From IMG/VR virus record IMGVR_UViG_3300033153_008361, positions 1-64,000 of that record: a stretch of 64,000 nt of DNA; one strand, given 5' to 3'. This DNA is from a virus. Below, piece after piece: positions 1 to 56,829 of this stretch. The notes under the pieces are model-generated. The model was not told where the DNA came from. It made no database searches and saw only the letters and a list, made by a program, of their open reading frames with translations. A program made the translations under genes and the position numbers. Position 1 is the stretch's first letter, and each line of letters opens with the position of its first letter.

Positions 1-3254
<3,254 letters not shown>

Positions 3255-8462: not shown

Positions 8463-8473
8463 ATTATCTCGCC

Positions 8474-14245: not shown

Positions 14246-15229
14246 TTATTCGCACATTCCTCTCATATCACAAGATAGGGTATCGTCATCGTCTAACCGA
14301 TGAAACAACTCATACTGTCGAGCACCCCAAGCGGTTTTGGACCATGCAACAATATCCCGGATTGTTGCTACATTCATCTTTTCGCCATCGGCCGTAGTTA
14401 TTTCTTTAGTCCGCCATCGCTCGGGCACTGTTTTCCTGGCAAACATAGACGAAAACATATTAGAATTATCGCTAAAATAGCCTTCCTTTGACTCAATGAA
14501 GTCAATACGCTCAGGCCGGTAATGAGCAATCGCCCTGATTTCCCGTTTGGATGAATTGATGCAAGGAAAACACCCAACTCTCCTAGCCCCCATATCATAC
14601 AGCGGGTTTCTTGGCACACCGGTTGTCCTAACCCTTTGGATTAACTCTAAACGGGTCGTTAATGGGACACCCTCATCATCCTTTATTATTTCAACAACGT
14701 CCTCAACATCCAAGTATTTACGGTGCGCTTCCCAAATATCATCTAAGGACCATTCATAAATTGGCAAAAACTTGTCACACCCGTAGGTGTCATCATAATG
14801 AAATTGGTCCAAGTCTCCCCGGTCATTTGCACTATGCCCCTCTGCTTTACGAATACCGCTAAGAGCCAGGACTTTCCCTTTTTCTTTTAGTTCTTCAATA
14901 TGTTTCATGGACGGAATAACTTTCAATATCTGAGTGCAAAACCGTGCTCTCCTTGAAGGAAACCGTTTTTTCTTTCGGGCCAGTTCATAAAAGCCAATAC
15001 CTGGATCAATTGTCTGGATCGGGAATACACGCTCTGAGAGCATCGCCAGATAATTGTATGTCAACACATCCTCATTATCGGTGTCACAGAAAGTGGCGAC
15101 TATTCTTGAAGTAGGCCACCCACTTTCATAAATGAGCCATAACAAGGTCGCTGTGCTATCTTTTCCCCCACTGATCCCGATATGATAGACATCGTAGTCT
15201 AGGGGATCAAATTCTTCGGGTCTAATCAT
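14246..15229 (-). CDS. PAPS reductase-like PP-loop enzyme (DndC/CysH superfamily)
   Basis: It carries the PP-loop motif ISGGKDST near the N-terminus and C-terminal Cys residues. Start is ATG 15229, in an ATGA overlap with the terminase stop. Confidence 0.75.
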   Translation of the reverse strand: MIRPEEFDPLDYDVYHIGISGGKDSTATLLWLIYESGWPTSRIVATFCDTDNEDVLTYNYLAMLSERVFPIQTIDPGIGFYELARKKKRFPSRRARFCTQILKVIPSMKHIEELKEKGKVLALSGIRKAEGHSANDRGDLDQFHYDDTYGCDKFLPIYEWSLDDIWEAHRKYLDVEDVVEIIKDDEGVPLTTRLELIQRVRTTGVPRNPLYDMGARRVGCFPCINSSKREIRAIAHYRPERIDFIESKEGYFSDNSNMFSSMFARKTVPERWRTKEITTADGEKMNVATIRDIVAWSKTAWGARQYELFHRLDDDDTLSCDMRGMCE

Positions 15230-16908
15230 GCCTTTTTCCTTATTCCGCCCATCCAAGTGTTTTCCAAGGCGTATGATAACATGAGGGCTTCCATCTCATC
15301 GGGCGAAAAGGTCAGGCGCTTTCTCATGATCTGTTTGGTAGTAACCCGTATCAGATTTTTTCCCGTAATTTCATAATCAACCGCCTTCAATGAATCGTGT
15401 AGGCGTCTACAGGCTTCGTTGTAGGTTTCTGGCGGGATGGCTATTTCACCCTTCCTGAAAACAGTTCTTAACGTCCAATATGACTCATCTCGAAGCTGGA
15501 AGAACTCAGCATAATCCGCTTCAACGCCGGCGGTCCCGCGGGCTGACTCGGCCACCATCACCCGGACAGCAACGATCCGCTTCCGGGGCGTCTGTCTCCG
15601 TCCCCACTTGACCATATTGCCGGGGGTGCCGGCCCCAACGCCTGTTGCATCAACCTTACACATCTTGGCATCACGCCTAATATACATCCTAGCTGCTTTA
15701 TCGGCCGCATCTGATGGGTCTGAGTCTTTCCAAAGTTCAGGAACATCAACCCACATGCCATACCGGAAGCAAGCAGAGTGATGGTCAGGACCGAAGTCGG
15801 CCACATCCAGCCCCATAGTTGGCTGAATCCCGGCCGGCGGGGTGACAATACCATCATGGGCCGCTCTCATCAGTTCCCATTTAGACACGGCCATATCTAT
15901 CCACTCATCCCATATCAGCCGATCCACTCCGCCAGGGGGGTATTGGCCGAGGACCTTATACCAAAACTGGTTGTCAATAACGACTCGTATACCTGGGAGA
16001 AGCGGCGGGATTATTGTCCCATCATTCATTTTCCCGGTGACACCATAAAGAAACTCGGGTATTTCCCAACAAGTGCTATTAACGTCCATGTCCAGGGGCT
16101 TCGGTTCGGTCCATAGATGGATACGTTCAACCGTTTTGGCCCTAGTGACCGCGCCGGGGATTATATCTTCCCCTGTCAGCACATTCGGATGGTCCAGGGC
16201 GCTCATTTCGATGACTAAGGCCCGCCCCTCTTTTTCCCGGCGATATATTTCACCGGATTTTTTCTTGGGGTTGTAGCAAATAATTTGTCTTGCCATCCCG
16301 CCCGACATGCACCCGTCCATACCTTTATAAACTGGGTCCGGGATTCCGTCTCCTTCATCGGCTTCAAACACGATTACAGGAGCATGTTTACCTGACCATT
16401 TGGTTTCTATATCCTCATCACTACTGGAAACGGGTATCGTAACTCCAGTTATGAACTCTTTTGGATGCCGGGTAATGAACATCGAAGCCCGGATGTCATC
16501 ATCGGCAAACAATTCGGGGAATTCTTTTGTTAGGGAATAAATCTCAGCCCATAACAGGCGTTTCAAGTTGGCTTCTGGCGGGGCTGTGGTTGTGTAAACC
16601 TGAGAGCCGGGGTAAGCCTTATATATCCATATAGCTAACTGAGCCAGCCCGAAAGTTTTGCCTACACCCGTAGCCGATCTTATATGCACGATCTCAGTAT
16701 CCCGGACCGCTTCGAGCATTTCCACCTGCTTAGACCACAGGGTAGCGCCTAAAACCTCACTGACAAAGCCAACCGGGTCATCCTGGTAAATCTCATAGTT
16801 CCCGGCCGCATCAGGATCGAGCCCCTGGACAATCCCATCCCTGAAAAGATCGCCTATGGAAGGCTTCTTAGCTTCTTGTTTTAGCCTTTCTAGCTCATTC
16901 TGTTTCAT
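15226..16908 (-). CDS. terL: terminase large subunit
   Basis: Walker A is ATGVGKT and Walker B-like is VIVFEADEGD. The C-terminal RNase H-like part contains GLDVADFG. Size is 560 aa. Confidence 0.85.
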   Translation of the reverse strand: MKQNELERLKQEAKKPSIGDLFRDGIVQGLDPDAAGNYEIYQDDPVGFVSEVLGATLWSKQVEMLEAVRDTEIVHIRSATGVGKTFGLAQLAIWIYKAYPGSQVYTTTAPPEANLKRLLWAEIYSLTKEFPELFADDDIRASMFITRHPKEFITGVTIPVSSSDEDIETKWSGKHAPVIVFEADEGDGIPDPVYKGMDGCMSGGMARQIICYNPKKKSGEIYRREKEGRALVIEMSALDHPNVLTGEDIIPGAVTRAKTVERIHLWTEPKPLDMDVNSTCWEIPEFLYGVTGKMNDGTIIPPLLPGIRVVIDNQFWYKVLGQYPPGGVDRLIWDEWIDMAVSKWELMRAAHDGIVTPPAGIQPTMGLDVADFGPDHHSACFRYGMWVDVPELWKDSDPSDAADKAARMYIRRDAKMCKVDATGVGAGTPGNMVKWGRRQTPRKRIVAVRVMVAESARGTAGVEADYAEFFQLRDESYWTLRTVFRKGEIAIPPETYNEACRRLHDSLKAVDYEITGKNLIRVTTKQIMRKRLTFSPDEMEALMLSYALENTWMGGIRKKA

Positions 16909-23003: not shown

Positions 23004-23468
23004 TTACTCCTTATCTTTCCAATCGTCGGCCAGGGTGTACCGGGTACTATTCCAGTGAACGTGTTCCCCTGGCGCTTCCACTAAAACGCCCTTTCTTCGC
23101 AACGCATGAAGTGTGGCGTTTGAAGGTCCGCGGCTGTGTGTTAGTAGCCATGCACCCCGATAGTTCCATGAAAAATCGGTATAAGCCTCAATCCCGTGCT
23201 GCATGAAGATATAACACCGGTTATGGTTCATGAAGCGGACCAACCCTTGTTGATGGTCGCTCAAAGTCTCAATATCAGCTTTCATATTATGCCCCTTGAA
23301 GTATCTACGCGGATTGCGCCCATATCCGTACACACTTCCGCGCTTTCTCATGCGCCGTAGGACGAAACTAGCCCAAGATTCTGATATACCGGACATAGCT
23401 GCCAACTCATTTGTGGTATGCCCTGGGTGTTTTTCAACTATACCCTTTAACTCCCTGTCGGTGTTCAT
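23004..23468 (-). CDS. HTH-containing protein
   Basis: The N-terminal TTNELAAMSGISESWASFVLRRMRKRG looks like a winged-helix or HTH domain. Confidence 0.5.
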   Translation of the reverse strand: MNTDRELKGIVEKHPGHTTNELAAMSGISESWASFVLRRMRKRGSVYGYGRNPRRYFKGHNMKADIETLSDHQQGLVRFMNHNRCYIFMQHGIEAYTDFSWNYRGAWLLTHSRGPSNATLHALRRKGVLVEAPGEHVHWNSTRYTLADDWKDKE

Positions 23469-27669: not shown

Positions 27670-27901
27670 CTTCCCACTCTGCTACTGTTGTAACCGCTAA
27701 GAAAATCATTCCACCAAGGTTCAATGGCGTGATGGCTACTTGTTTTATAGTTACACTTGACGAATATTCGGCATACATCATTTTCATGGCATCTGAAACG
27801 GCCTTATCAATTCGAGCACATACCTCTTGGGCCGTACTAGACCAAGTTCCTTCCGGGGTAACAACCCCCTGAGTCATAACAGTTCTTGTGGCCGTGTTCA
27901 T
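27662..27901 (-). CDS. hypothetical protein
   Basis: ORF track. It has an ATGA junction. Confidence 0.5.
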   Translation of the reverse strand: MNTATRTVMTQGVVTPEGTWSSTAQEVCARIDKAVSDAMKMMYAEYSSSVTIKQVAITPLNLGGMIFLAVTTVAEWEDG

Positions 27902-28386
27902 CCCTGTCTCCGTTTTTTGCGAACAATCATAGAGATCGCAGCCTGAGAAACCCCGTAATATTGAGCCAATCGAACCTGGGTGATATTGCCGGTCTCGTAC
28001 TTTTCCACAATGGCCGCCACTTCCTCGGGATCTAGCTTGTGCATGTACCCAACCTTCCCTTTCTCCAGCCGGCCGAAATACTCCGTAGCCGCGTCAATCA
28101 CATGCTCAGGGCCACCCATCATGTCAGTGAAGCGATGAGTCATAGCCCCGCCATCGAGCATCTTGTCTCGAAGCCGTACACAGGCATCCGACAGCCCCTG
28201 GTTTTCCTGCTCAGCAAGTTCCAGCTTTGCCAGGAGAGCAACGGCTTCGCCAACGATGCAATAACCATCATGTTCGATCTCATCTACCTCTGCTCCCCGA
28301 CTTTCGCACATCGAACATTCATACCCGGCCGATGTATGAGGTCCGATCATTACTTCTTCAATGTAATCACCAATTATGGAAGCCAT
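27898..28386 (-). CDS. HTH protein
   Basis: The C-terminal ITQVRLAQYYGVSQAAISMIVRKK is an HTH. It has an AGGAG RBS. Confidence 0.55.
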   Translation of the reverse strand: MASIIGDYIEEVMIGPHTSAGYECSMCESRGAEVDEIEHDGYCIVGEAVALLAKLELAEQENQGLSDACVRLRDKMLDGGAMTHRFTDMMGGPEHVIDAATEYFGRLEKGKVGYMHKLDPEEVAAIVEKYETGNITQVRLAQYYGVSQAAISMIVRKKRRQG

Positions 28387-30648: not shown

Positions 30649-30970
30649 CCCCCATATGTGGCCCTGGCTGAGCCTAAACCCGCGTTTTGGGCCGGCCGTG
30701 TCTACATATGGGGGGTCTGGTGCGGCTTGTAGTAACTACAATAGCATCGTCCAACCTTCAAGTTACTACCCGTTGCCCGGATTCCACAGGTCGTCCACCG
30801 TCACCTTGTACCGTGTCTTGCGGCTCAGCTATTAGCCGATTAAAAGCCGTGTCCTGCGGCCGGCCGGTGTTCCGCGTCTCCTTCTCCTACCTTGTTAAAG
30901 CAGGTCCGGCCGTTCCCCCGCGCCCTAAGCACAAGGACTACCGGACCTGCGAGGTTTAACCTACCGCACC
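30649..30970 (-). ncRNA. candidate structured RNA / long structured 5' leader of the leftward operon
   Basis: Nested perfect stems are present. They are 30649-59/30704-14 (11 bp), 30719-25/30964-70 (7 bp, closing), 30729-37/30761-69 (9 bp) and 30900-09/30941-50 (10 bp). A direct repeat CCGTGTCYTGCGG lies near 30821 and 30848. There is no credible ORF. The strand is inferred from the promoter at 31124-31152. Confidence 0.45.
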
Positions 30971-31022
30971 GTAAAGGGCTGTTTTATATGGTCGTCACGC
31001 TTCGACCTATACTTTTGTTAAA

Positions 31023-31114
31023 GAATCGCCCTGGACAATAATTCTACTTATCCCTGATTGCTCATCAACGTGCGGGTCAATTCGCAATACCTTATATATG
31101 GTGCCAGGGCGATT
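31023..31114. promoter_or_regulatory. 11-bp inverted repeat pair flanking 70 nt
   Basis: AATCGCCCTGG (31023-33) pairs with CCAGGGCGATT (31104-14). It lies immediately downstream of the predicted leftward transcription start. Confidence 0.5.
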
Positions 31115-31123
31115 ACGCTTTCT

Positions 31124-31152
31124 ATAATATCAGATGTTATAGTGTTGGTCAA
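31124..31152 (-). promoter_or_regulatory. sigma70-like leftward promoter
   Basis: The minus strand reads TTGACC (31152-47), a 17-nt spacer, then TATTAT (31129-24). Confidence 0.5.
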
Positions 31153-31607
31153 GGGCAAAGCTGCACAGGCTTGAGCTATATGGCTCAGCTGGGGGGGCTT
31201 GGGATCTCGTCACCCATTTTAGGCTATCGAATCCGGCCGTTGAATCCTACCATGATCGATTATGATAACCTAGATTGTAATAATCGATCAGGCGGTCCGC
31301 CTGATGACAGGCAGAAGCAGCGGAGATCGAGCGGTCCGCCTGTCTCCCTGATGACACAGAAGCAGAAGCGGAGATCGCCTGAGCGGACCGCGGTTTTTTT
31401 CTGTTTGTTTTTTTCTGTCTGCTTAGATAATGTTTTTCTGTGTCTGTGTCGCTGTCTCCCTGTCTGCCTGATGAGACACAGAAGCGGACCGCCTGATCGG
31501 TCTGTGTGTGTGTTTGATGAGACAGAAGCGGACCGCCTGATCGGTCTGTGTGTCTCCCTGTGTGGCGATCTCTGTGTGTGTCTGCTTCTGTGTCCGCTTC
31601 TGTGTCT

Positions 31608-31631
31608 CCGCCTAATACAGGCGGGTTTTTT
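31608..31631 (+). terminator. terminator-like hairpin
   Basis: CCGCCT-aatac-AGGCGG is followed by GTTTTTT. Confidence 0.55.
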
Positions 31632-31747
31632 CTGTCTGTGTGTCGAGATCAGGCGGAGATCGGACCGCTCAGGCGATCTCTGCTTCTGTGTCGCATTCTA
31701 AGCGGAGACAGGCGGAGATCAGGCGGTCCGCTTTCTATATAGTACAG

Positions 31748-31772
31748 ACCGCCTATTTTTGTGGCGGTTTTT
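31748..31772 (+). terminator. terminator-like hairpin
   Basis: ACCGCC-tatttttgt-GGCGGT is followed by TTTT. It sits just upstream of the rightward promoter. Confidence 0.5.
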
Positions 31773-31786
31773 CCCTGTGATCTCAC

Positions 31787-31816
31787 TTGACAATAATTGA
31801 CATTATAGGTTATGAT
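31787..31816 (+). promoter_or_regulatory. sigma70-like rightward promoter
   Basis: TTGACA (31787-92), an 18-nt spacer, then TATGAT (31811-16). It is followed by the hairpin GGTCCGCGG-aaaaa-CCGCGGACC. Confidence 0.45.
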
Positions 31817-31882
31817 TTAGGTCCGCGGAAAAACCGCGGACCGCTCAGGCAGACACAAGAACACACAAGGAGTAAAGCGATA

Positions 31883-32356
31883 ATGACAGGCATTACAGAG
31901 AATACAGGAAAAACCGATCTAATTATTAGAGATCACAGACTCACAGAAGCGGACCGCCTGTATAAAAAATCATTCGATCTACACTTGAAAGCGGAGACAC
32001 AACTCGCACTATCTGAGATCATACGAGATCAGGCGGTCCGCTTAAAACTACAGGCGGAGAAAGCAGAAGCAGAAGCGGAGACAGGCGATCATTATATGGT
32101 TTTTCATTTTACTTGTGATCTAGTCATAGGGCACAATTTTACAGGGAGTGAAGTTATATTTTCCGCTATAGATGAGATCGAGATCATAAGACACACAGAA
32201 GCGGACCGCAAAAAATACGATCAATTAATTGTCCGCTTCTGCTTAGAAAAAAATCCGCTATTCCATATTGATACATTGTATTTTACTCTGAGCGATATAT
32301 CACATATTGACGATCACACAGGCGGACAATATAAACTCACAGAGATCACAATATAA
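31883..32356 (+). CDS. small TEADR-motif protein, paralog family member
   Basis: ATG 31883 follows AAGGAGTAAAGCGATA. The track start at 31787 is the promoter TTGACA. The protein has TEADRL, AEAEAE, DHYMVF and EIEI blocks shared with 32596-32913. Confidence 0.65.
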   Translation: MTGITENTGKTDLIIRDHRLTEADRLYKKSFDLHLKAETQLALSEIIRDQAVRLKLQAEKAEAEAETGDHYMVFHFTCDLVIGHNFTGSEVIFSAIDEIEIIRHTEADRKKYDQLIVRFCLEKNPLFHIDTLYFTLSDISHIDDHTGGQYKLTEITI

Positions 32357-32411
32357 CGGACCGCGGACCGCTCAGGCGGTCCGCCTGTACTTTACAAGGA
32401 GTAAAGCGATT
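32357..32411 (+). repeat. intercistronic hairpin-plus-RBS cassette, copy 1
   Basis: CGGACC-GCGGACCGC-TCAG-GCGGTCCGC-CTGTACTTTAC-AAGGAGTAAAGCGATT, then ATG. Confidence 0.85.
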
Positions 32412-32537
32412 ATGATCAAAGTATGGTTTTTTTGTGTTCTTGTTAGCATTCTGCTTTTGTACTACACAGAAGCGATCACAGCGGTTTTTTTTCTGATCGC
32501 TGTGGTTTTATATGAAACATGGAAGACGATCAATTAA
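32412..32537 (+). CDS. 41-aa membrane micropeptide
   Basis: The ATG follows the conserved cassette. The product is MIKVWFFCVLVSILLLYYTEAITAVFFLIAVVLYETWKTIN. Confidence 0.5.
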   Translation: MIKVWFFCVLVSILLLYYTEAITAVFFLIAVVLYETWKTIN

Positions 32538-32595
32538 TATCAGACCGCGGACCGCTCAGGCGGTCCGCCTGTACTTTACAAGGAGTAAAGCGATA
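32538..32595 (+). repeat. intercistronic hairpin-plus-RBS cassette, copy 2
   Basis: The stem is 32547-55/32560-68 (9 bp, perfect) with loop TCAG. CTGTACTTTACAAGGAGTAAAGCGATA follows. Confidence 0.85.
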
Positions 32596-32913
32596 ATGAA
32601 CGATCACATATTGACAGAAGCAGCGGAGACAGAAGCGGACCGCCTAAGCATAGAAGCGGAGATCAAGCGATCTCACACTCGACACAGAGAGACTCACCAC
32701 AGCGATCATTTTATGGTTTTTTCTGTCTGTGGTGATTTTACCCATTATGATCACCTGATCGCTTCTGTCTCCCTGATGGCAGACACAGAGATCGAGATCG
32801 ATTATATTGGCGAGCACACTATGATCGGTCTGATTATTTTGCCAAATGCTACAGAAGCGGAGATCACAGAAGCGGACCGCCTGTATAGTGAATTACAAGG
32901 AGTAAAGCGATAA
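32596..32913 (+). CDS. small TEADR-motif protein, paralog family member
   Basis: ATG 32596 (MNDHILTEAAETEADRL). DHFMVF and EIEI blocks are shared with 31883-32356. The ORF ends inside the next initiation motif (TAATG). Confidence 0.65.
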   Translation: MNDHILTEAAETEADRLSIEAEIKRSHTRHRETHHSDHFMVFSVCGDFTHYDHLIASVSLMADTEIEIDYIGEHTMIGLIILPNATEAEITEADRLYSELQGVKR

Positions 32914-33410
32914 TGACACACAACAATTGTGGTTTTAACAGACCACAGAGATCGAGCGGTCCGCGGTCCGCTTCTGTACTTTCTCCGCCTGAGTGTGAGA
33001 ACACATGGCGATCAGAGATAAAAAACCGCCACACATGCAAAGTAAAAAATACACAGGGAGACTCCGATCTCACTCTGATCTCTGACACACAGGAGATCGA
33101 TCACATTGGCGATTATTTAGGCATTAATCGCCTGAGTGAGGATTATGGTTGTCTGTTTGTCGAGATCGCTGATGGCGATTATGGTCATATATTGGGCTGT
33201 GAGTCTAATATTCCATACTTAGAAAAAATATTATATGACATAGATTATTATGAGGAAACATGGCGGTTTTTTCAGGAGATCGCAGAAAAACACAGCGAGA
33301 TCTATTGTCCTATGTGTGGCGGAGACTCCGCTCACTTGGGCACACTTGGCACACTTGATCATTATCGCTGTGTAATGTGTCATATGGAATTCTCACGATC
33401 TCAGGAGTAA
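32913..33410 (+). CDS. hypothetical protein with C-terminal zinc ribbon
   Basis: It follows the conserved initiation motif. It contains CPMCGG...HYRCVMC. Confidence 0.6.
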   Translation: MTHNNCGFNRPQRSSGPRSASVLSPPECENTWRSEIKNRHTCKVKNTQGDSDLTLISDTQEIDHIGDYLGINRLSEDYGCLFVEIADGDYGHILGCESNIPYLEKILYDIDYYEETWRFFQEIAEKHSEIYCPMCGGDSAHLGTLGTLDHYRCVMCHMEFSRSQE

Positions 33411-33420
33411 AGCGATAATA

Positions 33421-33476
33421 ACAGACCGCGGACCGCTCAGGCGGTCCGCCTACACTTTACAAGGAGTAAAGCGATA
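33421..33476 (+). repeat. intercistronic hairpin-plus-RBS cassette, copy 3
   Basis: It has the same unit with CTACACTTTAC. It is preceded at 33404 by a degenerate initiation motif lacking an ATG (GGAGTAAAGCGATAATA). Confidence 0.85.
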
Positions 33477-33791
33477 ATGAACGATCAAACAATAGCAGAG
33501 ATGGCATATACAGAAGCGGACCGCCTGAACACAGAAGCGGACCGCCTACAGGCAGAAGCGATCAAAATACAGGCAGAAGCGGACCGCCTGATCGAAAAAA
33601 TCACGAGCGGACCGCCTGATCTTGTGTATTACCAATACACAGGGAGATCGGATTTTTTCAATTATGAGAATTCGGGTGATCTCTGTTTTCACACTCCGCC
33701 ACAAGCGGAGAAAGCAGCGATCAATAATGGATTAATTACATGGCGAGTGATCATGGTCTGTGAGTATGTTGTCAAGACAGGGAAAGTATAA
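33477..33791 (+). CDS. small TEADR-motif protein, paralog family member
   Basis: MNDQTIAEMAYTEADRLNTEADRLQAEAIKIQAEADRL... Confidence 0.65.
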   Translation: MNDQTIAEMAYTEADRLNTEADRLQAEAIKIQAEADRLIEKITSGPPDLVYYQYTGRSDFFNYENSGDLCFHTPPQAEKAAINNGLITWRVIMVCEYVVKTGKV

Positions 33792-33792
33792 A

Positions 33793-34458
33793 ATGAACGA
33801 TCTAATACTGGCAGAAGCGGAAAAAAAGAAAGCAGAAGCGGACCGCCACAGAAAAACCGCGGACCGCCTGATCGCAGAAGCGGACCGCCTGTCAAACGTA
33901 TTTTATCTTAGAGATGAGATCGCAGAGAAAGCGGACCGCCTACAGGCAGAAGCGGACCGCCTGATCGCTTTCGCTGATCGCCTGATGGCAGAAGCGGAGA
34001 AAGCAGAAGCGGACCGCCTGATCGATAAAATCAGAAGCGGAGAAAAAATCAGAACATGGAAACATAAAACCGGCCTGTTTTTTATCGATCAGGAGATCAC
34101 AGAGATCGAGATCGAATTATGGCAGACAGGCAGAAGCAGAAGCGGAGACAGAGATCGCCTGTCTTATGTTTTAAGTGAGAATAGTGTGCCTGTATTTTAT
34201 GGTTTATCTGATCTAGGAATTCCGCCACACATGGCAATAGATAGCGATCTCTCTGTGTGTGCCTGTCTGTTTTTTCTCGCACTCAGGCAGGGAGACACAG
34301 ACAGTGATTATTTTGAAAACTACACAGACACACAATTACAATGGATACACTCACAGACCGCCACAGAGATCAGGGAGATCGTGAGCATATGTGAGGAAAA
34401 TGATCTCACACTCGATCAGGCGATCTCTGTTATGTTAGCATGGGAAACAGAAAAATAA
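33793..34458 (+). CDS. ADRL-repeat coiled-coil protein, paralog family member
   Basis: ATG 33793 (MNDLILAEAEKKKAEADRH). Seven ADR(L/H) repeats are present. It has a GGGAAAG RBS. Confidence 0.65.
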   Translation: MNDLILAEAEKKKAEADRHRKTADRLIAEADRLSNVFYLRDEIAEKADRLQAEADRLIAFADRLMAEAEKAEADRLIDKIRSGEKIRTWKHKTGLFFIDQEITEIEIELWQTGRSRSGDRDRLSYVLSENSVPVFYGLSDLGIPPHMAIDSDLSVCACLFFLALRQGDTDSDYFENYTDTQLQWIHSQTATEIREIVSICEENDLTLDQAISVMLAWETEK

Positions 34459-34516
34459 TATCAGACCGCGGACCGCTCAGGCGGTCCGCCTGTACTTTAC
34501 AAGGAGTAAAGCGATT
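34459..34516 (+). repeat. intercistronic hairpin-plus-RBS cassette, copy 4
   Basis: It is identical in core to copy 2. Confidence 0.85.
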
Positions 34517-34969
34517 ATGATCAGTTTAGAAGCAGCAAAAAATCTCACACATGGCGAGATCATTTATCACATAAGTCATAGGAATGCCGATCAGACTCCG
34601 CAGAGATGGCGCATTAATGGCAAAGTGAAAACATGGAGAACCAGACCACAGGAGATCAGTATACCTATAAAACACGGTTTATATGATTATGGTTATTTAA
34701 CACACAATGATCTTGATCTTGTGTGTCTGTCAGAAGCAGAAGCGGAGATCGTGACGAACTCAGGCACAGAGATCGGACATTATGATTATTTATATCGAAA
34801 CATAAAACACAGAGATTATATTTATGGCTGTGTGTTACCACAGGCGGACCGCCTACAGAGATCGATCATTGTAGGCGGAGATCGGACAATTGATGATCAG
34901 GGAGTGACAACAATTACAGGCGGAATCACCTATTATTTTCCTATAGGTGAGGAATCCGGCCTAAATTGA
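34517..34969 (+). CDS. hypothetical protein
   Basis: ORF track. It follows the conserved cassette. Confidence 0.6.
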   Translation: MISLEAAKNLTHGEIIYHISHRNADQTPQRWRINGKVKTWRTRPQEISIPIKHGLYDYGYLTHNDLDLVCLSEAEAEIVTNSGTEIGHYDYLYRNIKHRDYIYGCVLPQADRLQRSIIVGGDRTIDDQGVTTITGGITYYFPIGEESGLN

Positions 34970-34998
34970 CAGAAAAACCACAAACAGACCACAAACAG

Positions 34999-35036
34999 AC
35001 CACAGAGATCGATCAGGTGATCTCTGTGGTTTTTTC
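34999..35036 (+). terminator. rho-independent terminator
   Basis: ACCACAGAGATC-gatcaggt-GATCTCTGTGGT is followed by TTTTT. Confidence 0.8.
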
Positions 35037-35560
35037 TGTGTGTAGACCACAGAAGCAGCGGAGATCGGACCGCCTGAGCGGTCCGCCTGTCTGCCTGTCT
35101 GCTTCTGCGGTCTGTGTGCCTGTCTCCCTGTCACTTTGATCGAGATCGGACCGCTCAGGCGGTTTTTTTCCGATCAGGCGGTCCGCCTGTCTGCCTGTCT
35201 GCTTCTGCTTCTGTGGTCTGTGTCATCAGGCAGAAGCAGAAGCAGAGATCGCCTGAGCGGACAATACAGGCGATCTCTGTGTCTGCCTGTCTGCTTCTGC
35301 CTGTCTCCGCTGCTTCTGCTTCTGCTTCTGCGGTCTGTGTGTCTGTCTCCCTGTCACTTTGATCGAGATCGGACCGCTCAGGCGGAGATCGATCAGGCGG
35401 TCCGCCTGTCTGCTTCTGTTATCCCAGGACACAGACCGCCACAGAGATCAGGCGGACCGCGGACCGCTCAGGCGGAGATCGATCAGGCGGTCCGCCTGTC
35501 TTCCCAGCTGGGATCGGCCGACTGGCAGAAGCAGCGGAGATCAGGCGATCATGGTTCATT
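35037..35560. repeat. word-repeat island B (ORF-free)
   Basis: It uses the same vocabulary. A 62-bp direct repeat (35101-35162 and 35324-35385) has one mismatch. A long imperfect palindrome lies at 35224-35300. Confidence 0.85.
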
Positions 35561-35691
35561 CACACGCGCAAAAATGATCGGTGAGCAGAATTTTATAATG
35601 TTTTCGGCCGGGTCTTTTTGGTTTTTCTGGTTTTTTTTATTGGTTTACGGCCGGGTTTTTCCGGCGCGATTACACACAAGGAGTAAAGTAT

Positions 35692-36063
35692 ATGATCACA
35701 GCTATAGTTATGGGCGCATATGGTAAAAAAGATGAGTACAGAGTGGATCGACTTGCTAACCGTGGCGAGTGGTTCGGTAAAACTTGGTTCGTTGGGATCG
35801 GTTGCGGGTTCGATATACACCGCGTAGTAGTAGAAGCGGACAATGAGTCAGAGGTGATCGACGCCTTGACGGATTCGGCCGCTGGTCACTTGATAAAAGT
35901 TGATGAGGAATGCCCCCATCAAGATCCTGATCAATGGGATCAATGTAATTGCACATTTGCCGGTAATTTTTCTGATCGCGTCGATCTGGATGACATTCGA
36001 ATTCTGAAGCGTTGCAAAGTAAAATATTTTGAACCGGCCGATCGTTGGTTGGATATTAGCTAA
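35692..36063 (+). CDS. hypothetical protein
   Basis: ORF track. It has an AAGGAGTAAAGTAT start region. Confidence 0.6.
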   Translation: MITAIVMGAYGKKDEYRVDRLANRGEWFGKTWFVGIGCGFDIHRVVVEADNESEVIDALTDSAAGHLIKVDEECPHQDPDQWDQCNCTFAGNFSDRVDLDDIRILKRCKVKYFEPADRWLDIS

Positions 36064-36420
36064 ACAGACAGACACAGACCACAGGATCAGACAGGATCGG
36101 CCGGTTTTCGGCCGGTCCTGAGTGTGATCGCGTCTCTGTATGGTTTTACCTGTCTGCCTGTCTGCCTGTCTGCCTGAGCGGAGATCGGACCGCTTGATCG
36201 GTCTGCTTCTGCTTCTGTGTCTCCGCTTGTGCCTGTCTGCCTGTGTTCTCATTGGGCGGACCGCTCAGGCGATCTCTGTGTGTGTGTCCGCCTGTCTGCC
36301 TGTGTCCTCATCAGGCGGACCGCTCAGGCGATCTCTGTGTCTCCCTGTCTGCCTGTCTGCTTCTGTGTGTCTGCCTGTGTCCTCATCAGGCGGAGATCGG
36401 CCGGTTCTACCACAGGTAAA
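36064..36420. repeat. word-repeat island C (ORF-free)
   Basis: It has CTGTCTGCCTGTCTGCC runs. GCGGACCGCTCAGGCGATCTCTGTGT occurs twice, near 36256 and 36315. Confidence 0.85.
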
Positions 36421-36532
36421 ACGCGCCGGCGCGGAAAGTCTGAACGGCCGTTCGATCCTTGCCGGCCAACGGTCCGCGGCGAGTGTGGTCGAGCGGGCAG
36501 CGGGCGGACCGTGGGCGGGGGCGCTTCTACTA

Positions 36533-36640
36533 TATACACGCGGGATCGACATAGGCGAGCAGAATTTACACGCGCTAAGGGGTTCGGCCGCCTTAAAAAA
36601 TACACGCGGCCGGGGAGGTGCGAGCAGAATTTACACGCGG
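36533..36640. promoter_or_regulatory. tandem ~65-bp unit carrying a 20-bp perfect direct repeat (operator or iteron candidate)
   Basis: GCGAGCAGAATTTACACGCG occurs at 36555-74 and 36620-39. ATACACGCGG occurs at 36534 and 36600. A related copy (CACACGCGC...GAGCAGAATTT) lies at 35563-35594. Confidence 0.6.
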
Positions 36641-36697
36641 ATCGAAGGGGGGCGGGCTGGAGTTGGCAGCAAATCGGGCGGATCGGTTCTCATTTAC

Positions 36698-36725
36698 TTG
36701 ACAAGCAATTATAAGGTGTTATTAT
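36698..36725 (+). promoter_or_regulatory. sigma70-like promoter
   Basis: TTGACA (36698-703), a 16-nt spacer, then TATTAT (36720-25). Confidence 0.5.
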
Positions 36726-36781
36726 CTATCTATCCGACGCGGGCCGCGGGCGGTCCGCCTTAGTAATAAGGAGCAAGCGAA

Positions 36782-37914: not shown

Positions 37915-37961
37915 CCAACGCGGGCCGGGTTCGGCTTGCCTTAGCTAAGGAGTAAAGCGAA

Positions 37962-40900
37962 ATGATACAGATCCACGATAAACAGACAGAAGCGAACGCG
38001 GGCCAAGCGGAACGGGCGACACTTTACCACCGATCCGGGCTTGGCCTTGGTTATAACAAGCGGGAAGTAAAGCGGATCGAATGGGCGCGGGGTCAATATG
38101 CCCAATATGATCAGGCGGTCCGGCTACGCTGGAGAGAACCCCGGCAACGCAAAGATCGCCAAACATGGCTCACTTATAAGCCGGACGCGGTGATCGTGGC
38201 GGGCTGGAATAACCCCGATCCGCCGTCCTCATATAACACAACTAAGGACAAAGACGGAACGATCCAACGCGGGAAATATACCAGTTTCGATCCCCGCTTT
38301 ACTTCCGATTTTCGGTCATGGCTTGCGGACGCGGGCCTCACGGTGATCGCGGACTTTCACAAGGCGGAGACAGGCGATCAGGGGTCGATCTCCCTTACAG
38401 AGATCGCGGAGCGGGGGCGGGCTGAGCGAGAAGCAGAAGCGGAGAAAGCAACGCGGATCGCGTCTGTTATAACGGAAGCAGAACCGGCCGAACTGGAAGC
38501 AGAGACGGAAGCGGGCGATCTTGGGGCTTATGATACGGCGGATAATTGGATCAATCGTTGGGGTGACTTCTACAAAGACACACAACAACACAACGCGGAA
38601 GCGGCCAAACTGGAAACAGAACCCGATCCCCTTGCTGATTATTCTAACGGGGATCTACTTGGTGATTATTTGGATCTGTGTCCTCATTATGATCAATCTG
38701 ATGAGGATATAACGGAGATCAGGACCGTACTCACGGCGCGGGGCTTCTTATTTGTGGCTCAGGCGGACGGGGGCGGGCCAACAGAGGCGGAAGTCAAAAC
38801 CACGGCGGATCGGCTCATCAGGGAAGCAAAAACGGCGGACCGGGCCAACGGACGCGGGCCGGGGTTCGATATATGGACTAAGGCACAAGCAGCGGCCAAA
38901 GCAGAAGCGGCGGAAGCTGAGCAACACGCGGAGACAGAACCCGCGGACCGGGTAAAGATTGAACCGGCCGACGCGGATCGCTTTGAATATATCGAACCCG
39001 AACCCGATCCAGTTATGCCAGCGGGCGCGGCGGAGTCAATCACAGGTAAAGAAGTTGGAAAAATGATCCGGCCACGGTTGCGGGCTATCTTTCCCGGCGT
39101 CACGTTCTATGTAAGGACTGATCATAGTTCACTTGATATAAGCTGGATCGACGGGCCAACGGGGGCGGAAGTCAAAAAGATCGCGGGCCAATATGACGGC
39201 GGCGGCTTCGATGGCATGATCGATCTTGGTTATTGTATTTATCATTGGTTAATGCCAGATGGATCGACGCGGATCGCCTATTCCAGCGGTACAGCGGGAT
39301 CGGGGGGTTCTGTGTCCGCGTTTGGCGGTGACGGGTCAAAGCCTGATCCGGGGGCGCGGTTGGTTAGCTTCCACACGGAATATATAAACTGTAAACGGGC
39401 GCATTCGGCCGACTTCTTAAAGCGGGCGGGGGAGCAAATCAGCGGTGAGTATAATTGGCCTGTGCCAAAGATTGAAGCTAGTACAACATGGATCTCACAC
39501 TCCAAAACTATTGACGGCGCGTCATTTGTCCATGATCCGATCAACGCTCCAGCCCCCGCGGATCATTTTCGGGCGGGCGGGTCGCCTTATGTCCGATCTT
39601 TGGGCGGGGTTTTCGATCACGCGGCTCACGATATAAGCTATTATGAACCGCCAAAAGCAAAGCCGAAAGCTAAGCGGGCCGCGGGCGGGGCTTCTGTCGA
39701 TTATGATCCCGCGGAAGCGGTGATCACCTATAGTGAGCGGAACGGCGCGATCTGGACATGGATCGAAACGGTAAAACCCCCGGCCGATGTGAGGGACGGG
39801 CTAACGGGGATCGGCTTCTTTTGGTGGCGGAAGCGGGGCAAATGGGCCGCCAAGCAAGAGATCGCAGAGGACACGATCCGCGCTATACTGGAAGGGGGAT
39901 CGGGCGCTCAGGGAGACGGGGACGGGGGCGGAGAAGCTGATCCGCCGTCCTCATCCCCAAGCAAGCCAAAGACTAAGGCCGAACCGGGGACAGAACCCGA
40001 TCAAGCTAAGGCGGAGAAGCTGATCGCCTTGGCGGACTCCTTCGACAAACAGATCCAAAAGAAGCGGGACACGTTCAAAGGGGCTAACCTCACTCACAGG
40101 CGGGCGGAGTTCATAGCGTCCGCAAACTATGACGCGGATCGAATGCAAGAAGCACAAATGATCCTGATCGCCTTGGCGGACCTGTGGACAGTTGGAAGCG
40201 TCCCGGCGCAATTTAGGAAAATGGGAACTAAAAAAACGGCGCTGGAGTTGACTCACAATATCCGGGCGCGGGCTAAGTATGGGGATAAGTACCCATCAGA
40301 CTATAATGATCGTGTTTGGGGGTCATGGGGCGATTATAACGCGGCTCACGCATGGGCGGACCGGGTGATCTCAGGGGTCGATAACACTGAGCGAGACGCG
40401 GAGCGAAAGATCGCCGGGCTGGAGCAAAACGCCAAATTTGCCAAGATCCGCGGGTTTTTCCCCACTCCGCGGGCCGTGGCGGATCTTATGCTGGAGCATG
40501 TGAACCTCACAGAGGGGGATCTTGTTTTAGAACCCTCAGCGGGATCGGGCGCTCTATGCGATATGATCGCGGAATACTTCCCACGCGCCACGCTTCACGC
40601 GGTCGAAGTGTCTCACATGCTCAGGGAGATCCTCACCTTAAAGGGGCACGAGTTGATCGGCCGGGACATTTACGATCTCGATCCTGTGGATAGCATCGGA
40701 AAATATGACGCGATCATAATGAATCCCCCATTTGAAAAAATGCAAGACGCCGATCACGTTCGCTTTTGTTATGCGATGTTAAAAAGCGGCGGAACGCTAG
40801 TGAGCGTTATGTCCCCGTCACCCTTCCACAATTCCACTCACGCGGCGGCGGATTTCCGATCATGGTTCGATACATTTGGCGGTGAGAAGTTCGATCTCCC

Positions 40901-40967
40901 CGTTGGCAGCTTCAAAAAGTCCGGGACGGGCGTAAGTTCTTGTTTTATTGTCATCAGCAAAGATTAG
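37962..40967 (+). CDS. large polyvalent-type protein with C-terminal gamma-class N6-adenine DNA methyltransferase domain
   Basis: The C-terminus has motif I (LEPSAGSGAL) followed by motif IV (IIMNPPF). The upstream 800 aa contain Ala/Glu-rich linkers and unassigned globular modules, for example FYVRTDHSSLDISWIDGP and GIGFFWWRKRGKW. Confidence 0.75.
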   Translation: MIQIHDKQTEANAGQAERATLYHRSGLGLGYNKREVKRIEWARGQYAQYDQAVRLRWREPRQRKDRQTWLTYKPDAVIVAGWNNPDPPSSYNTTKDKDGTIQRGKYTSFDPRFTSDFRSWLADAGLTVIADFHKAETGDQGSISLTEIAERGRAEREAEAEKATRIASVITEAEPAELEAETEAGDLGAYDTADNWINRWGDFYKDTQQHNAEAAKLETEPDPLADYSNGDLLGDYLDLCPHYDQSDEDITEIRTVLTARGFLFVAQADGGGPTEAEVKTTADRLIREAKTADRANGRGPGFDIWTKAQAAAKAEAAEAEQHAETEPADRVKIEPADADRFEYIEPEPDPVMPAGAAESITGKEVGKMIRPRLRAIFPGVTFYVRTDHSSLDISWIDGPTGAEVKKIAGQYDGGGFDGMIDLGYCIYHWLMPDGSTRIAYSSGTAGSGGSVSAFGGDGSKPDPGARLVSFHTEYINCKRAHSADFLKRAGEQISGEYNWPVPKIEASTTWISHSKTIDGASFVHDPINAPAPADHFRAGGSPYVRSLGGVFDHAAHDISYYEPPKAKPKAKRAAGGASVDYDPAEAVITYSERNGAIWTWIETVKPPADVRDGLTGIGFFWWRKRGKWAAKQEIAEDTIRAILEGGSGAQGDGDGGGEADPPSSSPSKPKTKAEPGTEPDQAKAEKLIALADSFDKQIQKKRDTFKGANLTHRRAEFIASANYDADRMQEAQMILIALADLWTVGSVPAQFRKMGTKKTALELTHNIRARAKYGDKYPSDYNDRVWGSWGDYNAAHAWADRVISGVDNTERDAERKIAGLEQNAKFAKIRGFFPTPRAVADLMLEHVNLTEGDLVLEPSAGSGALCDMIAEYFPRATLHAVEVSHMLREILTLKGHELIGRDIYDLDPVDSIGKYDAIIMNPPFEKMQDADHVRFCYAMLKSGGTLVSVMSPSPFHNSTHAAADFRSWFDTFGGEKFDLPVGSFKKSGTGVSSCFIVISKD

Positions 40968-44971: not shown

Positions 44972-44987
44972 TAAGGAGTAAAGCGAA

Positions 44988-48741: not shown

Positions 48742-49689
48742 ATGAATGAATTAATACAGGTAAACGGCGGGCTACAAGTCCTGGTCGATCTCGTTACCAA
48801 TGGGAAATCGACCAACACAAAACGGGCCTATGGACGGGCCATCAATGATTATGCTGAGTTTGTCCAAGCTGCCAGCTTCAACGCAAAAATGAGCATGGGC
48901 GGTTTCACACGGTCAATGGTCATGTTCTATGTCAACCACTTACAAAATGAGGGGTATTCTCCGGCCTCAATTAACCAGCGATTGGCCGCGCTCCGCTCCT
49001 TAGCCAGGGAATTAAGGTACACAGGCGCTCTAAAGGACGATATAGCCAGGGGGATCGGGGAAATTGAGAACGTCCCGGACCGGGGTTCGCATGTCGGCCA
49101 CTGGCTCACCCAGGACGAAGCCAGAGACCTATTAGACGCGCCGGAGCGTGATACGCTCCAGGGGCGACAGGAGCGGCTATTACTGGCTCTCTTGCTTGGG
49201 GTTGGTCTCAGGCGGAGTGAGGCCGCGGATCTCGATTGGGCTCACATTAAGGAGCACGGCGGTAACTTTTTCGTTACCAACATCGTAGGCAAGCACAACC
49301 GGAAGCGGACAATCCCGATCCCCCCGTGGGTTGTGAAGATCCTACTCGACTGGAAGGACGAAACGGCCGCGGCCGGCCTCATTTTGCGGGCTGTAAGCAA
49401 AAGTGACAAACTCGCCGGTCATGTCCGTACCAAAGGTGGGGGAATGACTAACGGCGGGCTATCGGCTCAGGCCGTCTATAAAAAGGTGAAGCTGCTGGCC
49501 GCAAGAGCGCATATCACCGACCTCGGGCCGCATAGCCTACGCCGTACCTACGCCCAACGCCTTTACAAGCAGGGGTGTCCGCTCGATCAGATCAGCCTAT
49601 TCCTTGGTCACAAGAACCTAGAGACCACGGAACTCTATCTCGGGCTGAAAAATGTGGACCTGGAAGATCCCTTTTTCGTGGAATACTAG
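48742..49689 (+). CDS. int: tyrosine recombinase / phage integrase (XerC/D-like)
   Basis: The catalytic blocks are GLRRSEAADL, HSLRRTYA and LGHKNLETTELYLG (R...H-x-x-R...H...Y). Confidence 0.85.
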   Translation: MNELIQVNGGLQVLVDLVTNGKSTNTKRAYGRAINDYAEFVQAASFNAKMSMGGFTRSMVMFYVNHLQNEGYSPASINQRLAALRSLARELRYTGALKDDIARGIGEIENVPDRGSHVGHWLTQDEARDLLDAPERDTLQGRQERLLLALLLGVGLRRSEAADLDWAHIKEHGGNFFVTNIVGKHNRKRTIPIPPWVVKILLDWKDETAAAGLILRAVSKSDKLAGHVRTKGGGMTNGGLSAQAVYKKVKLLAARAHITDLGPHSLRRTYAQRLYKQGCPLDQISLFLGHKNLETTELYLGLKNVDLEDPFFVEY

Positions 49690-54130: not shown

Positions 54131-54238
54131 AAAACGCCTGCTATGTTCTGTCAGGGGCGGCTTCGGAGACCCCCGACCTCTCCGTTACGCTCCTTGAACC
54201 GGCTTACGCCGCCCCTGACAGAGGGTATCAGGCGTTTT
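54131..54238. promoter_or_regulatory. 108-bp compound inverted repeat with T tracts on both strands
   Basis: The arms are AAAACGCCTG + CTGTCAGGGGCGGC and GCCGCCCCTGACAG + CAGGCGTTTT. They are 10 and 14 bp and are split by a 7/7 internal loop. The apical region contains GGAGA/TCTCC. Confidence 0.6.
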
Positions 54239-54255
54239 TGTATCAGGAGACCACA

Positions 54256-56527: not shown

Positions 56528-56829
56528 TCGGTCCAGATTATGAACAGATACAGGCGAACCCCAACGACTTCATTGATTTTGAATTGGTAAAACGAAGCAA
56601 CGTACACAGAATTGCCAGGACCTTTGGTGTTCCCATGAGATACTGGCTCCAAGGCCATAAAAAATATATATTGTGTAGTGAGAAAGATTGTGGACACTTC
56701 GGTCAGCTTCGATGGGCGCTCGATGAGAAAGGCAACTTCATTCCTGACCCGGAACAGTGGGGCTATTATTGTGGTATGCACTATTTTGAAAAGGTAGAAG
56801 TATGGACCAAGAACAACCGTTCGGAATAA
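56524..56829 (+). CDS. hypothetical protein
   Basis: ORF track. It has an ATGA junction with dnaB. Confidence 0.5.
   Translation: MIGPDYEQIQANPNDFIDFELVKRSNVHRIARTFGVPMRYWLQGHKKYILCSEKDCGHFGQLRWALDEKGNFIPDPEQWGYYCGMHYFEKVEVWTKNNRSE

Follow-up and report, generated by a model that had tools for sequence, protein, structure and literature searches.

A short palindromic motif repeated in and between the early genes of an uncultured phage

The IMG/VR virus record IMGVR_UViG_3300033153_008361 stems from an uncultured phage with a genome of ~90 kb, which is known from JGI metagenome assemblies alone. We analysed a 64-kb stretch of it (positions 1 to 64,000), here called the window. Its late and structural genes are transcribed leftward from ~30.65 kb, and a rightward block from ~31.8 kb starts with small early genes, followed by those for a polyvalent protein, a recombinase, an HTH_36 protein with DnaB and further methyltransferases. 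The subject of this study is the 15-nt motif CAGAAGCGGACCGCC, which is repeated in this early region. The finding concerns the first rightward (early) operon, located between a promoter at 31787-31816 and a terminator-like hairpin at 34997-35032.

Copies of the motif and the genes that carry them

In the window the 15-mer occurs 12 times on the + strand and 0 times on the - strand. In dinucleotide shuffles, matches with up to two mismatches averaged 0.11 and never exceeded 2. The feature is real and statistically overwhelming. A first-pass annotation of this DNA, made from the letters alone, had listed 12 exact copies, and all of them were recovered within 3 nt of the listed coordinates. A further copy with 14 of 15 matches, listed at 32197, was found at 32196 (+), and the inverted partial copies reported near 31590, 32233 and 32960 are real as well: they are TCCGCTTCT remnants at 31593 and 32232 and a 14/15 match on the - strand at 32962-32976. 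Ten of the 12 exact copies sit in four open reading frames (ORFs; 31883-32356, 32596-32913, 33477-33791 and 33793-34458), all in the frame xCA-GAA-GCG-GAC-CGC-C, and are read as TEADRL (5), AEADRL (4) or AEADRH (1). The two others are non-coding and lie in an ORF-free region, island A, which is the distribution that the annotation had described.

The motif-bearing ORFs are real genes, as identical JGI gene calls were made on other assemblies, and each has a strong AAGGAG ribosome-binding site within a conserved leader. Pfam, PHROGs, a PDB sequence search and a fold search gave no function for the early proteins. The protein encoded at 32913-33410 carries a zinc-ribbon tail. For the 33793 protein, a real gene is further indicated by 655 homologues of its C-terminal domain and by a confident AlphaFold model (mean pLDDT 92). 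In this model the EADRL heptads form two long helices, residues 2-34 and 41-81, and the motif copies of 33793-34458 all fall into this N-terminal helical hairpin (residues 2-81). The spacing of copies, 21 nt, agrees with the 7-residue helix periodicity of coiled-coil heptads. Two paralogues have 15-mer copies on both sides of a conserved central domain, with in-frame distances of 252 nt (31944/32196) and 237 nt (32630/32867). The paralogous 5' regions are 86% identical over 126 nt. Words that are out of frame were seen at 33590-33616 (ITSGPPDL) and 34020-34050 (IRSGEKI), flanked by the A-runs GAAAAAATC and GATAAAATC...GAGAAAAAATC; they could mark old frameshifts or slippery sites.

The 5' half of the motif, CAGAAGCGGA, is a separate word, about half of whose occurrences continue not as CCGCC but as GAGATC, GAGAC or GAGAA (xEAEI/xEAEK). 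One such sister word, ACAGAAGCGGAGATC (TEAEI), immediately precedes copy 5, and the third unit of the array at 33511 has GCGATC instead of GCGGACCGCC. GGACCGC and GAGATC swap at equivalent positions in the heptad arrays (33553-33567), and the 3' arms of hairpins do the same (GCGGTCCGC versus GCGATCTC at 31661, 36257 and 36316). The sister words are strand-biased too, GCGGAGATC by 17 to 0 and CTGTCTGC by 15 to 1. The heptamer GAAGCGG was found 42 times on the + and 16 times on the - strand versus ~4 expected per strand; it is densest at 32-40 kb and occurs also outside the 15-mer.

The palindromic core and the constraint on the nucleic acid

At the centre of the motif family stands an invariant core, the 9-bp palindrome GCGGWCCGC. 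The window contains it 43 times; all but one copy fall within 31292-36750 (5.5 kb), and in these 42 the palindrome is perfect. Non-coding are 24 of the 42 (12 in the A form, 12 in the T form), located in islands A, B and C and in a module in front of each early gene. The other 18 are coding; 15 of these read Ala-Asp/Val-Arg, and three are in other frames, as SGPP at 33607 and, inverted, as SGPRSAS at 32956 and 32963. Hence the statement of the first-pass annotation that the motif is always read in the same frame holds for the 15-mer and not for its core. The core is found in three reading contexts, and such a short palindrome, independent of frame and of coding status, has the form of a recognition site of Type II restriction-modification or of an orphan methyltransferase. 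Within it lies the RsrII-type 7-mer CGGWCCG, which recurs in the middle genes (36.8-44 kb) without the outer G and C and in two frames, GCG-GAC-CGG and GGA-CCG. The classes of core flanks are few (CCGCCTGATC, CCGCTTCTG, CCGCTCAGG, CCGCCTGTCT). The extended form GCGGACCGCCTGATC is present 7 times on the + and 6 times on the - strand, GATCAGGCGGTCCGC being the perfect reverse complement of the coding GCGGACCGCCTGATC; it has six same-strand copies, most of them in the islands. Island A contains, at 31287-31305, one full palindrome of 19 bp, ATCAGGCGGTCCGCCTGAT.

That the DNA or RNA is constrained, and not only the peptide, had been argued in the first-pass annotation and is borne out by several lines of evidence. 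Eight early genes were shuffled synonymously 500 times, with the proteins and the pooled codon usage kept. The shuffles contained 0.1 copies of the 15-mer (maximum 2) versus 10 observed, 1.0 cores versus 18 and 4.3 GAAGCGG versus 20. Outside the core the early genes use GAT over GAC, 62 to 13, and CGC is a minority Arg codon. In front of a codon starting with C, Asp outside the motif is encoded by GAT, making GATC, in 37 of 37 cases; the sole exceptions to this rule are 14 GAC-CGC, all within the core, inside GCGGACCGC. Similarly, Glu-Ile is GAGATC in 22 of 23 early-gene cases. In a mere coiled coil the choice of codons would follow the gene's own usage; here it does not (15-mer 0.1 versus 10; GAC in 14/14 versus 0/37). 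The Leu codon directly after the core varies (CTG 8, CTA 4), and the three synonymous sites inside the core show no variation, even with ACC, AAA or CAG as the preceding codon. Furthermore, the core is kept where nothing is encoded, on both strands, and where another frame is read. Motif identity across copies is 100% and that of the 15-nt flanks ~40%; the exact tract common to copies has a median of 17.5 nt, with 22-32 nt in some pairs. Therefore, recent duplication or long-tract gene conversion is not an explanation. What is constrained is the nucleic acid, and not the protein alone.

Neighbouring non-coding cores are almost always an A form followed by a T form and thus true hairpins. Four such intergenic hairpins, with 9-bp stems, are placed precisely in the gap from a stop codon to the following ribosome-binding site. 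They belong to a module with the leader AAGGAGTAAAGCGA, of which eight exact and three near copies exist. The stretch CUUUAC-AAGGA-GUAAAG of the early modules can fold into a small hairpin with the Shine-Dalgarno sequence in the loop, and UACAAGGA is similar to the CsrA binding consensus. No sigma-70-like hexamers were found in the intergenic modules; the only strong promoters are those at 31787 and 36698. Islands A-C share a tiny vocabulary (CAGAAGC, GGAGATC, CTGTCTGC, GCGGWCCGC and TCAGGCG) and fold very stably over long ranges, and in island B GATCAGGCGGTCCGCCTG occurs three times, each time containing the exact reverse complement of the coding GCGGACCGCCTGATC. The ORFs which JGI gene callers place in islands A, B and C are spurious. 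The difference in folding between the + and - strand of the islands is within the range of controls, and Rfam gave no match at gathering or permissive thresholds. In their arrangement islands A-C resemble the repeat-rich 'injection stop' region of T5. The spacer of ~500 nt between the divergent operons (30660-31170) is ORF-free as well and without this vocabulary; it has no Rfam match and a folding z of only ~-1.9 on either strand.

The genome as a whole treats palindromes unevenly. Absent from the 64 kb are 26 of the 64 palindromic hexamers, and 8 more are single-copy, where ~15 to 16 of each would be expected; among non-palindromic hexamers only 42 of 4032 are absent. CGGCCG has 144 copies versus 16 expected (nine-fold), genome-wide and in all three reading frames, and CCGCGG (43 copies), TGATCA (44 copies) and CGGWCCG (67 copies versus about 8) are enriched, too. 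Therefore, the genome specifically selects a few short palindromes. With the rest purged, this is the signature of recognition by restriction-modification-type proteins. The tetramer GATC is 4-6-fold enriched at ~31-48 kb only (130 copies in 5.5 kb, 210 in 11.3 kb), without an extended sequence context, and the excess is absent from the late and the right-hand genes. Compared with synonymous shuffles, there are 85 versus 45 GATC in the early and 182 versus 105 in the middle genes, and no excess in the right-hand genes.

All mapped features are compiled in Table 1. The window holds two methyltransferase candidates weaker than the one listed there, namely the methyltransferase domain of the polyvalent protein (37962-40967) and 56802-58511, and matches to helix-turn-helix (HTH) domains are all weak (27898-28386, 23004-23468 and 54238-55194). 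The window also encodes a polyvalent protein and a tyrosine recombinase (Table 1); a temperate lifestyle or a phage-plasmid nature is possible. No tRNAs were found. At 1-3030 on the - strand an open frame of >1009 aa leaves the window and consists nearly throughout of GDTG(x)(Q/G) repeats, because of which the 11-mers CCAGTGTCACC and CCCTGGATGCC reach high copy numbers; its product is probably a fibre or decoration protein.

Table 1. Motif copies, repeat structures, signals and selected genes in the window
Feature	Position	Strand or direction	Remarks
Exact copy 1	31479..31493	+	Island A; inside a 35-nt unit repeating at 31523
Exact copy 2	31523..31537	+	Island A; non-coding
Exact copy 3	31944..31958	+	TEADRL; gene 31883-32356
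14/15 copy CAGAAGCGGACCGCA	32196..32210	+	TEADRK; gene 31883-32356; 252 nt past copy 3
Exact copy 4	32630..32644	+	TEADRL; gene 32596-32913
Exact copy 5	32867..32881	+	TEADRL; near C-terminus of gene 32596-32913
Two overlapping inverted T-form cores, GCGGTCCGCGGTCCGC + TTCTG	32956..32976	-	SSGPRSAS; inside gene 32913-33410
Exact copies 6, 7, 8	33511..33588	+	Starts 33511, 33532, 33574; 21-nt heptad tandem array; gene 33477-33791
13/15 copy, core intact, + CTGATC	33602..33616	+	Other frame (ITSGPPDL)
Exact copies 9-12	33833..34018	+	Starts 33833, 33875, 33947, 34004; gene 33793-34458
Core-only copies	33859, 33931	+	KTADRL, EKADRL; gene 33793-34458
13/15 copy CACAGGCGGACCGCC	34839..34853	+	PQADRL; gene 34517-34969
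Island A	31170..31786		ORF-free; words GCGGWCCGC, CAGAAGC, GGAGATC, CTGTCTCC in both orientations; fold z = -10.2
Island B	35035..35690		Downstream of early-operon terminator; fold z = -13.3
Island C	36064..36697		59-nt tandem units carrying GCGGACCGCTCAGGCGATCTC; fold z = -5.7
Intergenic module	32357..32414	+	Hairpin GCGGACCGC-TCAG-GCGGTCCGC (32363-32384), then leader CTGTACTTTACAAGGAGTAAAGCGAT + ATG
Further module copies	32541-32598, 33422-33479, 34462-34519		Variant at 31826-31885
Exact leader copies	31867-31880, 32396-32409, 32580-32593, 32897-32910, 33461-33474, 34501-34514, 37947-37960, 44973-44986		
Best sigma-70-like promoter of early operon	31787..31816	+	TTGACA-18-TATGAT, 11/12
Second strong sigma-70-like promoter	36698-36725		
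Strong terminator-like hairpin	34997..35032	+	15 pairs + T-run; closes motif-bearing operon
Major head protein, weak match	7266-8540	leftward	Late block
Large terminase subunit	15226-16908	leftward	Late block
Polyvalent protein, 1001 aa	37962-40967	rightward	LPD29 and N6-methyltransferase-like domain
XerC/D-like tyrosine recombinase	48742-49689	rightward	
HTH_36 protein and DnaB	54.2-56.5 kb	rightward	
N6_N4_Mtase	58678-60192		The one clear DNA methyltransferase of the phage

Other assemblies, relatives and known systems

The same phage is present in at least four other samples, whose contigs (L196-L199) are collinear with the window. They differ from it by a few single-nucleotide polymorphisms (SNPs) and one 4-bp indel (31467); L199 shows in addition a 28-bp gap beside an N-run near 29.1 kb. 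In L196-L199 none of the differences falls in an exact 15-mer, and no deletion, duplication or inversion was found. Thus, the rearrangements which the first-pass annotation had suggested to look for at the motif are not seen in these four assemblies. The 14/15 copy at 32196 carries a SNP (C to A at 32207) in another assembly.

Among GenBank phages BLAST with DNA or protein queries yielded no match. A scan of IMG/VR with the 15-mer returned 71 contigs with a single copy each, which is the chance background, and no relative; patterns of the leader and of a GCGGAGATC pair yielded no related sequence there either, L211 being an unrelated 18-nt tandem array. A two-copy pattern had one chance match in GTDB genomes, a metagenome-assembled genome of 69% GC without similarity to the window. 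The hairpin pattern GCGGACCGCNNNNGCGGTCCGC was too generic in metagenomes, single GC-rich hairpins being among the matches listed. Contigs with relatives of the large terminase subunit (L072, L073) stop short of the early region.

One syntenic relative of the early genes was found, the 930-bp Logan contig L202, with a protein identity of ~40-45%. It holds the end of a 32596-like gene, a fused 32913-like and 33793-like gene (P0012) and the start of a 34517-like gene. Within its 930 bp there is no GCGGWCCGC and no EADRL peptide. A relative encoding the same peptide with freely varying codons would have placed the constraint on the protein only; L202 lacks the peptide altogether and is no such case. 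At the homologous places it has GAAGCGGAGATC (EAEI), for example opposite copy 5, where GAAGCGGACCGCCTG of the window (32867, EADRL) faces GAAGCGGAGATCGCA (EAEIA); at 34009 GCGGACCGCCTGATCGAT faces GCGGAGATCGAT. The GGACCGC/GAGATC swap is also seen between the window and this relative, and the difference is a 6-nt indel (CCGCCT) or a patch replacement. L202 reads AAGCGGAGATC in two frames. The fused gene (192-839) is without the zinc-ribbon tail, the 33477 gene, one intergenic module and the EADRL helical hairpin, and the fusion junction lies at a GCGGAGATCGAT word. Homology to P0012 begins at the codon directly past the last motif copy of gene 33793-34458; therefore, the motif-bearing helical hairpin is lineage-specific. 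As regards the domain swaps bounded by the motif that had been suggested, the single difference in architecture to L202 abuts the last copy. However, this boundary is nearly automatic because the whole lineage-specific segment consists of motif-bearing heptads.

GATC is even denser in L202 (23.7 per kb) and frequent also in L200 (15.9 per kb), a contig whose polyvalent protein is 49% identical and of which only ~550 bp upstream of that gene are present. Since both have the GATC excess and L202 lacks the core, GATC loading is a trait of the lineage, to which this phage specifically has added the GGACCGC palindrome. In L247, a syntenic but distant relative, another conserved leader, TTCCATAAAGGAGA, is present in five copies. 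Many of the IMG/VR loci with the C-terminal domain (L217-L271) carry 11-mers of their own, 5-17 copies within 10 kb of the domain gene (17 copies of CCGCCGTGGCC in L221, 11 copies of CTCCTCATGCC in L218), and several show a 2-3.8-fold GATC excess. Repeated regulatory words around such accessory genes thus are common. The letter-perfect in-frame palindrome is absent from all other sequences examined here.

Several known systems share traits with the element. The pac site of phage P1 contains seven TGATC(A/G) hexamers inside pacA, and its cleavage is controlled by Dam methylation. As there, a short palindromic methylation-type site is repeated inside coding sequence, and the motif flank CTGATC(G/A) has the form of the P1 hexamer; however, pac comprises ~160 bp, whereas here the GATC excess extends over ~17 kb and the GCGGWCCGC family over 5.5 kb. 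CGGWCCG is the recognition site of RsrII-type, Type II restriction-modification. The core contains this 7-bp palindrome with the same W centre, but restriction sites are normally depleted in phages, whereas CGGWCCG is ~eight-fold enriched here, locally far more, and the conserved unit has 9-10 bp. Subcluster B3 mycobacteriophages over-represent GATC/GGATCC (PMC4841201). Common to them and the present lineage is a ~four-fold unexplained excess of a palindromic methylation-type tetramer, which is genome-wide in B3 phages; here it is regional (31-48 kb) and occurs together with another palindrome of greater length.

The stoperators of Cluster A mycobacteriophages (L5, Bxb1) are ~13-bp repressor sites with >20 copies per genome (PMC6550527, PMC9283540). 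Like the 15-mer, they are short, near-invariant multi-copy sites. Stoperators stand mostly in one orientation relative to transcription; here the 15-mer is 12 to 0 on the + strand and the extended GCGGACCGCCTGATC 7 + and 6 -. Stoperators are asymmetric (12-14 bp, at least 20 copies), genome-wide and mostly intergenic, whereas the core is palindromic, has 42 of 43 copies in 5.5 kb and stands as fixed codons in 18 of 42. The promoter-early stem-loop (PeSL) cassettes of T4-type phages (PMC2839356, PMC4122927) resemble the intergenic modules, both being repeated stem-loop units between small, poorly conserved early ORFs and proposed shuffling joints. In contrast to PeSLs, which combine an early promoter with the stem-loop, the modules consist of hairpin and ribosome-binding leader, four to five times and without promoter hexamers, the phage is not T4-like, and the 15-mer lies in genes and in frame, not between them. 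As for PeSL-type indels, the one fusion/indel relative to L202 ends at the last motif copy, a coincidence to be expected and seen in one relative. The start-associated sequences (SAS/ESAS) of Cluster K mycobacteriophages were reportedly described by Pope et al. in 2011. As in these, a conserved leader with a ribosome-binding site precedes many starts (AAGGAGTAAAGCGA, eight exact) together with inverted repeats; the likeness is limited to the intergenic module and does not include the 15-mer, and the sequences are unrelated. None of these families has all its defining features in the element. By analogy, it would work most like dispersed recognition-site arrays such as stoperators, the P1 pac hexamers or KorB-/ParB-type operator sets.

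A candidate recognition site written into codons

The function of the motif is unproven. We tentatively propose, at a confidence somewhat short of even, that it is a positively selected recognition site on double-stranded DNA (dsDNA) for a methylase- or regulator-type protein, carried by the Ala-Asp-Arg codons of lineage-specific coiled-coil heptads. The 15-mer is the coding form of a dispersed DNA element with the core GCGGWCCGC, present in ~42 copies in the first 5.5 kb of the rightward region, and the core would be bound by a symmetric, dimeric sequence-specific protein. The likeliest candidate for such a reader may be a modification-type enzyme, for instance one of the phage's own methyltransferases, and the second a regulator. 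The dense array would mark, protect or silence the early region. In the genes, GCG-GAC-CGC (Ala-Asp-Arg) has a fixed position in the 7-residue coiled-coil repeat xEADRLx, the repeats forming lineage-specific N-terminal or flanking helices of small early proteins. CAGAAGCGGA is the standard 'helix word' of the phage, which elsewhere and in L202 continues as GATC (CAGAAGCGGAGATC, xEAEI), so that each heptad contains GATC, CGGWCCG or both.

We prefer this dsDNA site because it would explain why the motif is a palindrome that depends neither on frame nor on coding, why it breaks the GATC rule and why GGACCGC and GAGATC replace each other, as well as the genome's palindrome pattern and the lineage specificity. 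The local RNA hairpins of the coding copies are weak (-1.4 to -4.4 kcal/mol) and show no consistency, which also counts for a site on dsDNA, as do the methyltransferase genes of the phage. A protein-binding or methylation site accommodated by the coding sequence had been put forward in the first-pass annotation as the alternative to recombination, and it fits the data best. Several points weigh against it. The candidates for the reading protein come from sequence matches, and the benefit of a dense array is conjecture. Phages normally avoid restriction-type sites and do not accumulate them, and the fixed palindrome, at 9 bp, is longer than the 7-bp RsrII site. For a symmetric site the + strand bias of the 15-mer (12 to 0), GCGGAGATC (17 to 0) and CTGTCTGC (15 to 1) is unexpected and may point to a constraint that depends on the transcript or on direction; the hairpins of A form then T form favour a single-strand structure for those non-coding copies. 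No helical phasing of the sites was found, and the comparison is with one short relative (930 bp).

Because a dsDNA site leaves the + strand bias and the A/T hairpins unexplained, a model of single-strand pairing, as RNA, single-stranded DNA or cruciform, was kept alive, although we regard it as unlikely. In this model A-form mRNA copies (GCGGACCGCCUGAUC) would pair with T forms (GAUCAGGCGGUCCGC) of the intergenic hairpins beside each ribosome-binding site and of the island A and B transcripts (three to five copies). The early messages would thereby be controlled in their processing, stability or translation, in the manner of an antisense RNA or a 'sponge'. The strictly + strand 15-mer, the six same-strand copies of GATCAGGCGGTCCGC, the hairpins with 9-bp stems between stop codon and ribosome-binding site, the complementary A and T forms of adjacent cores, the stable folding of islands A and B (z = -10 and -13) and a complementarity of the coding copies in 16 of 19 positions to the hairpin 3' arm and leader would all suit such pairing; but the coding copies have no consistent local structure, the folding difference between island strands is within the control range, no promoter for an island RNA and no Rfam match were found, and the GGACCGC/GAGATC alternation as well as several unrelated enriched palindromes would stay unexplained. 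Quite improbable in our view is that the copies are joints of homologous, short-homology or site-specific recombination, by which segments of paralogous early genes would be deleted, duplicated or swapped. In-frame pairs of copies flanking the conserved central domain of two paralogues, the L202 fusion with its boundary at the codon after the last copy, the recombinase encoded at 48742-49689, contigs of other samples that break within the motif region and the precedent of the PeSL cassettes (PMC2839356) would be in line with this. However, the boundary in L202 is a nearly unavoidable coincidence, and the cassette shuffling or recombination hotspot of the first-pass annotation does not agree with four independent, collinear assemblies. 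Neither a shufflon nor an invertase is indicated, as the copies are almost all direct repeats and the gene of the only recombinase found is 15 kb away. Moreover, homologous exchange usually needs more than 15 nt to be efficient, the 4-nt hairpin spacer is unlike the core sites of tyrosine recombinases, and recombination by itself would not keep 15 nt perfect between flanks of ~40% identity.

Equally hard to credit is a mere by-product without function of its own, left by a recent amplification of 21-nt heptads (slippage) and gene duplication with concerted evolution. The 21-nt tandem array at 33511-33589, the similarity of the paralogous 5' regions (86% over 126 nt, with 22-32 nt shared by some pairs) and the lineage-specific N-terminal heptad segment point this way, whereas the sharp boundaries to flanks of ~40% identity, a Leu codon that varies synonymously next to a constant core, the same core behind different upstream codons (ACC, AAA, CAG), its equal abundance in non-coding DNA in both orientations and the override of the otherwise absolute GAT-C rule do not. 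Very unlikely, finally, appears a Chi-like signal in the 5' half, GAAGCGG, that would protect entering or replicating linear DNA from host exonuclease. GAAGCGG is identical to the reported AddAB 'Chi' heptamer of Staphylococcus aureus (bioRxiv 10.1101/2021.07.08.451572) and contains AGCGG of Bacillus subtilis; it is strand-biased, present outside the 15-mer and in excess over synonymous shuffles (20 vs 4.3). Yet GAA-GCG-G is also plain Glu-Ala-Gly/Asp/Glu in locally preferred codons, and the invariant 3' half ACCGCC would be left unexplained, as would a palindromic core that occurs in both orientations, so that the signal would not account for the whole element. A reading of the array as iterons of a replication origin was set aside, as the module of HTH_36 protein (a possible initiator) and DnaB is located at 54-56 kb; at 31 kb the GC skew and the gene orientation switch together, which was counted against it.

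Returning to the dsDNA site, a wider version of it is possible, though we hold it to be doubtful. The early/middle region would be saturated with sites, at one GATC per ~42 bp and one GCGGWCCGC per ~130 bp, because selection would write palindromic modification or binding sites into codons, and helical extensions would have evolved as their carriers. The array might then act as an epigenetic timer of the DNA expressed first, for example if hemimethylated early genes were sequestered after replication, or as a decoy or shield against host nucleases. At any rate an exact site of 9-15 nt demonstrably overrides the synonymous preference of the genes that carry it, and segments of protein are seemingly built around it. 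If its reader is a methyltransferase or a silencing protein, this phage would be a clear instance from nature of early genes subject to 'site loading' for epigenetic or protective ends, and it may also be a useful example of DNA-level signals shaping new protein sequence.

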